Position numbers and translations under genes: made by a program | The notes under the pieces: generated by a model | The model's input: only the letters and a program-made list of their open reading frames with translations | Database searches by the model: none | Told to the model about the DNA's origin: nothing | Part shown: piece after piece, positions 11,965 to 13,191 of the stretch | Layout: each line of letters opens with the position of its first letter | Numbering within the stretch: position 1 is the first letter of the stretch | Virus record (IMG/VR): IMGVR_UViG_646311924_000020 | Length of the DNA stretch: 43,730 bases | Strand: one strand, 5' to 3' | Source of the DNA: a virus | Taxonomy: Duplodnaviria; Heunggongvirae; Uroviricota; Caudoviricetes

Positions 11965-12665
11965 CAGTCAATCAGCCCATGTAATCTAAGTGCTGTTTCA
12001 AGCGCCAGAATACGCTGCCGCGCCTGCTGCAAACCTGTAGCGAGAGCCGCGACTTCGGATTGTGTGTACGTAGTGCCGACCGTGTATGACTGGTTAGCGT
12101 TGAATGAGCCAAGAAGAGGTGTACCTGTGGCTGCAGTCCATCCGGTATTTCTTGCTCCAACAACCTGAATTCCATCAACTGAATATGATGTTTTTACATC
12201 CAGCGGTGACGCAAGAGACTGCGATTCGGTTACGGTTTTCGATACGTAATCACTCTTAATGTCAGATACATCGCTTTCTACGCCATCCAGTCTTTGGTCA
12301 ACAGTGACCAGATGCGCCTGAATATCGATAACCTCATCCAGCAAGTAATCAACATCGCTACGCAGTACGACTATCTTCCCTTCGGCGGTTGTTAACCTGA
12401 CCTCAAGGAGATTTATCGCTTTTGTGTTTGCGGTGATTCTTGCATCGTGGTCAGCCAGTTCGACATCCTGTTCATCGTTTTTCACCTGAGCATCGTAAGC
12501 GCCCTGACCAGCCTGATTTGCCTTCCCGGCAATTGCGCCGACATCAGCCCCCTGATTAATGACATACAGCAGGTAAGACTGGCTGAATATATTGCGTGGA
12601 AGGACTGATGTGTCGAGCCGTGTAGCCTGAATGATTACCGGCACATTGAGATTCGAATCAGCCAT
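11964..12665 (-). CDS. tail needle protein, P22 gp26-like
   Basis: [73 protein letters not shown]... and C-terminal [13 protein letters not shown] match the recalled P22 gp26. Start at internal ATG 12665. Confidence 0.9.
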
Positions 12666-13191
12666 TAACATGCCTCCATGCCTTGCCATTTACAATTCTA
12701 CTAACCTTTGAATTGTGAATTCCAAATAATTTAGCAACTTCACACTGAGGAAATCCATTGGCAACCATTTCTTTTATCTTTATGACATCATCATTAGATA
12801 TTTTAGAATTACCATTCCTTTCTCCTTTTACATTACCTCTCGACTCCAATCCATATGAGTGTGAGATATTTCCTGATGGAGTAACCCATTCAAGATTTAG
12901 ATAGTTATTATTATATTTATCACCATCTATATGATTTACCTGTAACCCTTCAGCAAATCCACCAACAAAGTGAGATGCAACAAGCTTATGTATTAGTATG
13001 TTCTTTTTTACGCCATCCTTATATAAACACACATACTTATATCCATTTACGTTATGATTATGCTTCAGCCACCTACCCTTAATAAGACGTCCCCTCAAAT
13101 TTACTCTTGAATGCGAGTAAACTCTACCATCATTAGTGATGGCGTACAGTCCTTCATATCCTTCGATATCTTTTGCGTTTTCACTTAACAT
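12658..13191 (-). CDS. free-standing HNH homing endonuclease
   Basis: 177 aa; N-terminal [21 protein letters not shown] motif, HNH core (HKLVASHFV...[18 protein letters not shown]) and C-terminal HTH-like tail; AT-rich relative to neighbours; inserted between gp10 and gp26, which are adjacent in P22. Confidence 0.8.

Follow-up and report, generated by a model that had tools for sequence, protein, structure and literature searches.

A probable free-standing homing-endonuclease cassette, linked to a diverged gp10 tail, at the tail-hub/tail-needle junction of P22-like prophages

What is an HNH endonuclease gene doing between two adjacent virion genes of a P22-like prophage, and did it come to lie there through its own activity? 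The question is raised by a 43,730-nucleotide (nt) stretch of DNA from a tailed virus (Caudoviricetes; IMG/VR record IMGVR_UViG_646311924_000020), hereafter called the window, where such a gene separates gp10, encoding the tail hub, from the tail needle gene, a homologue of P22 gp26. An earlier, sequence-only reading of this DNA had proposed that an AT-rich, free-standing homing-endonuclease gene of 177 amino acids (aa) invaded this junction and overlaps the needle start by 8 nt. The gene, its length and its overlap were all recovered by the open reading frame (ORF), by Pfam and PHROG matches, and by a needle start at position 12665. Our analysis indicates that the gene is probably a free-standing, I-HmuI-like homing-endonuclease cassette with endonuclease-driven mobility, and that it is linked to a diverged allele of the gp10 3' end. 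The features of the junction are listed below from gp10 to the needle.

13213..14631, minus strand: gp10, tail hub/packaged-DNA stabilisation protein (472 aa; PF11134, E 9e-281; PHROG 578)
13192..13212, minus strand: spacer from the gp10 stop to the HNH start (21 nt), carrying the HNH Shine-Dalgarno sequence
13202-13197, minus strand: HNH Shine-Dalgarno sequence AAGGAG, 5 nt ahead of the ATG at 13191
12658..13191, minus strand: HNH endonuclease gene, termed allele A, an intact ATG-started ORF of 177 aa with its own stop
12673..12677, minus strand: needle ribosome-binding site GGAGG, placed inside the 3' end of the HNH ORF by the junction alignment
11964..12665, minus strand: tail needle (gp26 homologue; 233 aa; PHROG 1219, E 1e-112)

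The product of the HNH gene matched PHROG 59, 'HNH endonuclease' (E 2e-49), and three regions of it were assigned to Pfam domains, the third a helix-turn-helix (HTH) below the reporting threshold.

13021-13173, minus strand (aa 7-57): NUMOD4 (E 5e-13; 49.5 bits vs a cutoff of 23.4)
12868-12993, minus strand (aa 67-108): HNH_3 (E 5e-10; 39.3 bits vs a cutoff of 24.8)
12688-12780, minus strand (aa 138-168): C-terminal HTH (HTH_23), sub-threshold

I-HmuI, the homing enzyme of Bacillus phage SPO1 (1U3E), was the sole significant sequence match in the PDB (E 8e-21, residues 7-174 vs 4-163, ~31% identity). An AlphaFold2 model of the protein, built on 53 homologues, was confident throughout, with a mean predicted local distance difference test score (pLDDT) of 91.9. 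When this model was compared with the PDB by Foldseek, 1U3E again ranked first (E 1e-9, 179 aligned columns), and the C-terminal helices also matched the HTH domains of Hin, resolvase and Pax. The two proteins are alike in size (174 aa for I-HmuI vs 177 aa) and in layout: in each, a beta-sheet region at the N terminus that binds DNA (NUMOD4) is followed by the beta-beta-alpha-metal HNH motif and, at the C terminus, by a helix-turn-helix. Also conserved are the His that acts as general base and the two Asn residues of the motif: His87, Asn99 and Asn108 align with His75, Asn87 and Asn96 of I-HmuI, and they were unchanged in both homologue sets used to judge residue conservation, one of 53 and one of 113 sequences. 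By every sequence and predicted-fold criterion tried, the gene thus belongs to the I-HmuI-like NUMOD4/HNH_3 family, and these comparisons make a homing enzyme its closest characterised relative. The protein already has a RefSeq label, 'NUMOD4 domain-containing protein' (WP_000947776.1). The genomic setting is where the two differ, I-HmuI being encoded in a group I intron of the DNA polymerase gene of a virulent Gram-positive phage, whereas the window gene stands free, with a structural gene on either side, in a temperate podovirus of enterobacteria.

Two residues might suggest that the gene is an inactive relic, the decaying remnant of a former homing endonuclease. Asn86, just before the catalytic His, sits at the position of I-HmuI Asp74, which we take to be an acidic metal ligand in 1U3E, and Gly107 stands in place of a family-typical Glu. 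Asn occurs at the former position in 112 of the 113 homologues, however, with Asp only in I-HmuI, the one enzyme of solved structure; Asn86 was therefore rejected as an inactivating lesion, Asn being the family-wide state. The same reading would also fit the disruption by insertion sequences (IS) of three of the 55 Escherichia coli copies described below, and the IS damage to the window prophage itself. Against it stand the invariance of the catalytic His and of both Asn, the confident model, the intact ORF, and the diversity data given further on, and we consider it very improbable.

We aligned the gp10-to-needle interval of the window with those of HK620, Sf6, CUS-3, HZ41, vB_EcoP-683R2 and UPF_BP1. 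The sequence-only reading had stated that gp10 and gp26 are adjacent in P22, which is correct: the two genes are 3 nt apart there, with no insert. They also adjoin in the other relatives that lack the gene, overlapping by 1 nt (TAATG) in HK620, Sf6 and CUS-3, while in Proteus phage Brookers gp10 abuts the needle gene. In the window, ORF calling extends the needle gene to 12689; the start MADSNL common to HK620, Sf6 and CUS-3 is the ATG at 12665. The HNH stop codon, TGA (12660-12658), falls in the 8-nt overlap with the needle start (12658-12665), ATGGCTGA. The right edge of the insert is exact and lies at the conserved TAATGGCTGA. At this edge TAATGGCTGATTCG is common to all aligned genomes, and it is preceded by the HNH 3' end, ...TGGAGGCATGT, in the window and by the gp10 3' end, ...AAGGATTGAG, in the empty sites. 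The new GGAGG thereby substitutes for an AAGGA that phages without the insert carry within the 3' end of gp10.

The coding strand of the insert showed no match to a promoter or a terminator. On the opposite strand one promoter-like match was present, at 12782-12809, where the DNA is AT-rich; overall, fewer sites were found than expected from shuffling. No Rfam group I or group II intron model reached its gathering score in the window. The group I intron hypothesis was rejected, Rfam being negative in the window and in two of the other loci opened (L013 and L006), where a second HNH gene adjoins a duplicated gp10 5' fragment. An intron-encoded homing endonuclease was likewise ruled out, since gp10 and the needle gene are both complete and separately terminated and initiated. 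With its own start, stop and ribosome-binding site and no intron, the HNH gene is, on the evidence of its sequence signals, free-standing. We propose that it is a promoter-less, co-oriented cassette inserted precisely at the junction of two translationally coupled genes, gp10 and gp26. Late-operon transcription would cover it, and its translation would start from its own Shine-Dalgarno sequence. Needle expression would be preserved, because the 3' end of the cassette brings another ribosome-binding site and an overlap of 8 nt with the needle gene.

The claim that the gene is AT-rich held for the ORF, where the GC (guanine plus cytosine) fraction is 0.32-0.35 vs ~0.50 in the flanks and 0.47 in the window, but the AT-rich block extends beyond the ORF, ~320 nt into gp10. 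Rather than a sharp left edge at the gp10 stop, we found that nt identity to insert-free phages falls from 90-100% to 55-61% over the last ~320 nt of gp10. The gene can accordingly be divided into two parts.

13213..~13535, minus strand: HNH-linked gp10 tail allele, the last ~105 codons, GC 0.36 vs 0.51 in the gp10 body
13536..14631, minus strand: gp10 body, an ordinary E. coli P22-like allele with 98% aa identity to HK620 and Sf6

The last 100 gp10 residues have 63-66% aa identity to those of HK620, Sf6 and P22. By composition and alignment, the foreign low-GC block thus appears to comprise gp10 codons ~365-472, the 21-nt spacer and the HNH gene, about 12666-13535. Among sequenced phages, HZ41 aside, no source of the gp10 tail was found closer than 67% aa identity (Proteus phages), and the nearest compositional match was a Providencia prophage (71% aa, native GC 0.43-0.44).

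To see how widely the insert occurs, we drew on a phage survey (127 records matching the gp10/needle region) and an E. coli survey (5,426 complete genomes, 913 of which matched the gp10/needle query). Among the 127 phage records, a NUMOD4-HNH gene was found at this junction only in Escherichia phage HZ41, where another allele, B (181 aa, 50-54% aa identity), is present. Close relatives without the insert (HK620, CUS-3, Sf6 and P22) are ~95% identical in the gp10/needle flanks. The low-GC gp10 tail was present in 55 of the 5,426 E. coli genomes, or 55 of the 913 with a query match. Thus, universal presence with matching GC, which would have spoken against the earlier proposal, was not what we found: the insert is rare in both surveys and its GC is foreign. 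Prophages of O111:H8 and related strains are 100% identical to the window sequence. Allele A, at a coverage of at least 80%, accounted for 33 of the 55 genomes, allele B for 16, one of them with an IS1 inside, and a third allele, C, for 4 (e.g., PEC011, 47% aa identity to A); in the remaining 2 the HNH gene is broken by an IS3-family element. The three alleles share 47-58% aa identity with one another, and the tails beside them 91-97% protein identity. Each of the four further loci opened retains the 21-nt spacer and the 8-nt overlap. Two alleles have natural knock-outs: in E. coli ETEC6333/6334 an IS3-family element interrupts allele A, in what is left of a badly degraded prophage, and in NZ_CP022164.1 (M160133) an IS1 interrupts allele B.

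This distribution also bears on the view that the HNH protein is a morphogenetic helper serving virion assembly or DNA packaging. HK97 gp74 is a terminase-associated HNH protein of the type found in cos phages, and co-transcription with structural genes in the late operon would suit such a function. P22-like phages package by a headful mechanism. The gene is missing from P22, HK620, Sf6, CUS-3 and ~94% of E. coli P22-like prophages, which makes it dispensable; it lies between tail hub and needle, not beside the terminase gene (22395-23810, ~9 kb off), and its domain architecture is that of I-HmuI-type homing enzymes. We regard a role in morphogenesis as extremely unlikely.

Beyond Escherichia, we reached Citrobacter and Providencia contexts by a homologue search of a large protein database followed by inspection of the encoding contigs. 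An HNH gene with the same 8-nt overlap occupies the same junction in a Citrobacter prophage (89% aa identity), in an unassigned Logan contig (62%) and in a Providencia rettgeri prophage (48% aa identity to allele A, 69% to allele B). The window and the Providencia copy share the spacer motif TCGAAAC...GGAGTAGAT, which argues for one ancestral insertion. A scan of a one-genome-per-species collection, made with overly specific back-translated HNH patterns, returned only an irrelevant archaeal match.

Linkage of the gene to the diverged gp10 tail was strict. A NUMOD4-HNH gene follows this tail in 55 of the 55 E. coli genomes that carry it. No NUMOD4-HNH gene beside a canonical tail was found at this junction in E. 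coli, where one of four extra NUMOD4 hits (H324-H327) was opened. That hit, H324, was rejected as a junction copy with a canonical tail, its locus being the Q/holin junction of another lambdoid prophage. Moreover, the tail follows the HNH gene rather than the gp10 body. Compared with the window, the Citrobacter gp10 is 80% identical in the body and 88% in the tail, and the gp10 of the Logan contig 72% and 82%, respectively. The GC step at 13500-13537 recurs in the E. coli, Citrobacter and Logan backgrounds. Conversely, Providencia, which has the HNH gene, and Brookers, which lacks it, share 75% identity in their gp10 bodies and 68% in their tails, whereas Brookers and P22/HK620 share 61% in their bodies and 76-78% in their tails. 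In this comparison, which covers six gp10 proteins, the tails group by HNH presence, across phage lineage.

Such linkage might arise without any contribution from the nuclease. The tail and HNH gene could have entered once as a passive mosaic module and then been redistributed among lambdoid and P22-like prophages by homologous recombination of the ordinary kind, the protein being kept for some other benefit, such as cutting the DNA of co-infecting competitors without gene conversion. With a tail only ~57% identical in nt to the alternative allele, recombination within the block would be suppressed and the linkage would persist by itself, and the left boundary is equal in all backgrounds, as expected of a protein-domain joint. 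Transfer of the tail and HNH gene across genus- and family-level phage lineages, against the phylogeny of the gp10 body, speaks against this view, as do the patterns of diversity.

To assess diversity among allele A copies, we compared seven loci: the window, OZ040490, E2863, AR_0118, 503440, K56-43-un and CUVM3. Their HNH proteins are identical, while their gp10 proteins fall under five accessions beyond that of the window and their needle genes measure 702, 849 or 954 nt, representing three architectures. The mean pairwise nt difference was lowest in the spacer plus HNH gene (0.8%) and rose with distance, to 2.1% in the tail and 6.8% in the gp10 body on one side and to 12% in the first 200 nt of the needle gene on the other. 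All nine variable sites of the HNH ORF were synonymous third positions (9/9), synonymous sites making up a 21% share; these changes indicate that the protein is under purifying selection. On the needle side, identity to the window stops at ~12645, ~12612 or ~12588, depending on the locus. Together with the ~320-nt linked tail, these variable end points would be compatible with co-conversion of the flanks, but also with passive linkage. Mosaicism extends to the 5' part of the needle gene, where at 12466-12600 the window has a CUS-3/HZ41-like patch and the other allele A prophages have an HK620-like one, and the breakpoints of the patch vary among loci.

The low-diversity island centred on the HNH gene, the rise of diversity with distance and the purely synonymous change together point to a functional element that has spread recently. 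A decaying relic, or a block as old as its flanks, would not yield a diversity pattern centred on the HNH gene, and an identical protein in seven diverged prophages with synonymous changes only is hard to square with decay. High mosaicism, with three needle architectures and patchy needle 5' ends beside one HNH gene, is what passive shuffling would produce. On the gp10 side, however, the HNH gene is the least diverse segment and the stepwise increase away from it suggests a recent spread centred on it; the synonymous changes imply that the protein is in use, and its closest characterised relative is a homing enzyme. We therefore judge passive shuffling unlikely, though less so than decay. Overall, the suggestion of the sequence-only reading that the gene is a mobile, free-standing homing endonuclease gains support from its own expression signals, the empty sites, its foreign composition, its rarity and its low diversity.

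We propose that the cassette would spread as follows. P22-like genomes with and without the HNH gene could replicate in one cell during co-infection, after superinfection of an induced lysogen, or in polylysogens; up to 3 such loci are present per genome. The enzyme would then nick or cut the HNH-free allele, either at the gp10/gp26 junction or within the last ~350 base pairs (bp) of gp10. Recombinational repair from the HNH-bearing genome would copy the HNH gene along with the adjacent gp10 3' end, and the mobile unit would consist of the diverged gp10 C-terminal allele plus the HNH gene. The diverged tail would be obligatorily co-converted DNA, comparable to that of T4 SegF and SegG, or a cleavage-immune allele, or both. 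We read the tail as a co-transferred flank of the cassette; it is possibly a cleavage-resistant allele as well.

A more specific version of this mechanism is that of a two-part mobile unit, in which the enzyme cuts canonical gp10 300-350 bp upstream of the HNH gene, near 13500-13540, and the diverged gp10 C-terminal domain is the immunity allele. Each homing event would then force a tail-hub domain swap, by which one gp10 domain clade would have been carried across Escherichia, Citrobacter and Providencia phages. The HNH alleles A, B and C, together with the AP2-type HNH gene described below, would be rivals displacing one another at one site, much like I-HmuI and I-HmuII. We put this version forward tentatively, as a possibility that is rather less probable than not.

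Several points weigh against endonuclease-driven homing. We infer the cleavage activity of the HNH protein, its target site and its endonuclease-driven spread. With Asn86 in place of Asp74, the chemistry cannot simply be that of I-HmuI. Mosaicism is notorious in P22-like phages, and passive linkage would be expected of a block that lacks homology to its alternative allele; the left breakpoints, all within 13500-13537, could equally mark a gp10 domain boundary tolerated by selection. A classical homing cycle predicts precise losses of the HNH gene that leave the linked tail behind, and none was seen. Finally, the window copy is probably not being mobilised now, given two IS copies and a split scaffold gene in its prophage.

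Precedents for much of the proposed behaviour exist among phage homing endonucleases. Those of the HMU phages, I-HmuI of SPO1 and I-HmuII of SP82, cause exclusion of flanking markers (PMC2988022). The free-standing endonucleases of T4 are promoter-less cassettes that cut at a distance, co-convert the intervening DNA and cause marker exclusion (PMC2988022), and the ~320-nt tail linked to the window gene fits such behaviour by analogy. Like T4 SegF, SegG and MobE, the window gene lacks a promoter, occupies the junction between two genes of an essential operon, overlaps neighbouring ORFs slightly and is inherited along with a diverged allele of the gene segment beside it. SegH and Hef replace mobC and mobE (PMC2988022), a swap at a single site that is comparable to the presence of several HNH genes at the junction studied here. 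The T4 enzymes differ in kind, SegF and SegG being GIY-YIG proteins and MobE an HNH protein with other DNA-binding domains, and in host phage, the T-even phages being virulent. Their cleavage sites were mapped experimentally, whereas our distant-cut model draws on the linked tail. A further parallel is offered by the 'HEG islands' described by Barth, Dunham and Seed (PMC10055350), where nuclease genes sit at boundaries of genetic exchange beside essential phage genes. There, as here, a nuclease gene lies by an essential structural gene at a sharp switch from conserved to divergent sequence; that work deals with ICP1 and other virulent phages and with other HEG families (T5orf172, IPA-HNH), and P22-like prophages appear not to be its subject. 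We found the gp10/gp26 junction insert in no paper, although an earlier mention in Casjens and Thuman-Commike (2011) is possible. Other HNH or homing-endonuclease insertions in P22-like genomes include the epsilon34 eaE fusion and an insertion between the terminase and portal genes of SEN22.

NUMOD4-HNH genes are not the only nuclease genes at this junction. An unrelated HNH_3+AP2 gene of 164 aa, mis-annotated as 'endolysin', occupies it in vB_EcoP-683R2 (2266-2760 of the locus, L002) and also in 13-16 E. coli genomes. This gene adjoins a canonical gp10 tail and carries at its 3' end a second copy of the final 12 nt of gp10 (AGGATTGAGTAA), which again keeps the needle ribosome-binding site and the coupling intact. 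Thus, with three NUMOD4-HNH alleles and one AP2-type HNH gene, the gp10/needle junction appears from these sequences to be a hotspot. In addition, a NUMOD4-HNH paralogue of 194 aa was found at the gp4/gp10 junction in Salmonella phage UPF_BP1, OZ040490 and K56-43-un, at the following positions of the loci opened.

L013, 3056-3781: gp4/gp10-junction NUMOD4-HNH paralogue
L022, 3318-3639: gp4/gp10-junction NUMOD4-HNH paralogue
L006, 3632-4216: gp4/gp10-junction NUMOD4-HNH paralogue

HNH genes flank gp10 on both sides in some prophages. Upstream of the paralogue in L013, 93 nt from the gp10 5' end are present as a duplicate, and the 3' end of this paralogue overlaps the gp10 start by 53 nt. A further NUMOD4-HNH paralogue, of 173 aa, is located between the Q antiterminator and holin genes of an E. 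coli SWYH.B349aT prophage (L026, 2070-2591), with a GIY-YIG nuclease gene nearby. Judging from these loci, the NUMOD4-HNH family appears to settle several conserved junctions of lambdoid and P22-like genomes. The window prophage carries a putative second homing-endonuclease gene, at 30032-30598 on the minus strand between ninF and ninG; its 188-aa product is labelled 'HNH endonuclease' in RefSeq and resembles a protein of the HNH plus AP2 type.

Phages commonly carry free-standing HNH homing-endonuclease genes, and the gene itself is unremarkable. Its value lies in its context, the best-studied temperate podovirus lineage (P22, HK620, Sf6), where the empty counterpart of the cassette is clean, a segment of a structural gene is strictly linked to it, and several alleles compete, with knock-outs by IS already present in nature. 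The mechanism of intronless homing has been studied mostly in virulent T-even phages. If the nuclease does drive the linkage, a selfish gene would be forcing tail-hub domain exchange between phages of different genera and contributing to the well-known mosaicism of P22-like virion genes; should the unit indeed be of two parts, the genetics of P22, HK620 and Sf6 would make it a tractable model.

The window prophage itself is damaged by two IS3-family copies that are 100% identical, lie in inverted relative orientation and bracket the coat gene.

15260-16569, minus strand: IS3-family copy 1 (1,310 bp), with an ALIL frameshift pseudoknot at 16118-16234
18439-19748, plus strand: IS3-family copy 2 (1,310 bp), with an ALIL frameshift pseudoknot at 18774-18890

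Copy 1 lies between the coat gene and a small ORF upstream of gp4, and copy 2 splits the scaffold gene into segments at 17898-18386 and 19709-20104. An otherwise identical prophage in strain SD134209 has neither IS. From this arrangement, the window prophage is probably defective for head assembly and morphogenesis. The sequence-only reading, sound as to the insert itself, had overlooked this IS damage along with the foreign allele of the gp10 C terminus and the hotspot of several HNH genes. In the window the HNH gene is intact, downstream of an IS. Elsewhere the prophage has what is usual in such phages: a sar antisense RNA of the P22 type (6022-6089, plus strand; Rfam RF00262, 95.6 bits) that adjoins the ant/arc region, and two tRNA genes upstream of the lysis genes (27878-27950 and 27959-28030, minus strand), annotated as Thr and Asn in the SD134209 prophage.

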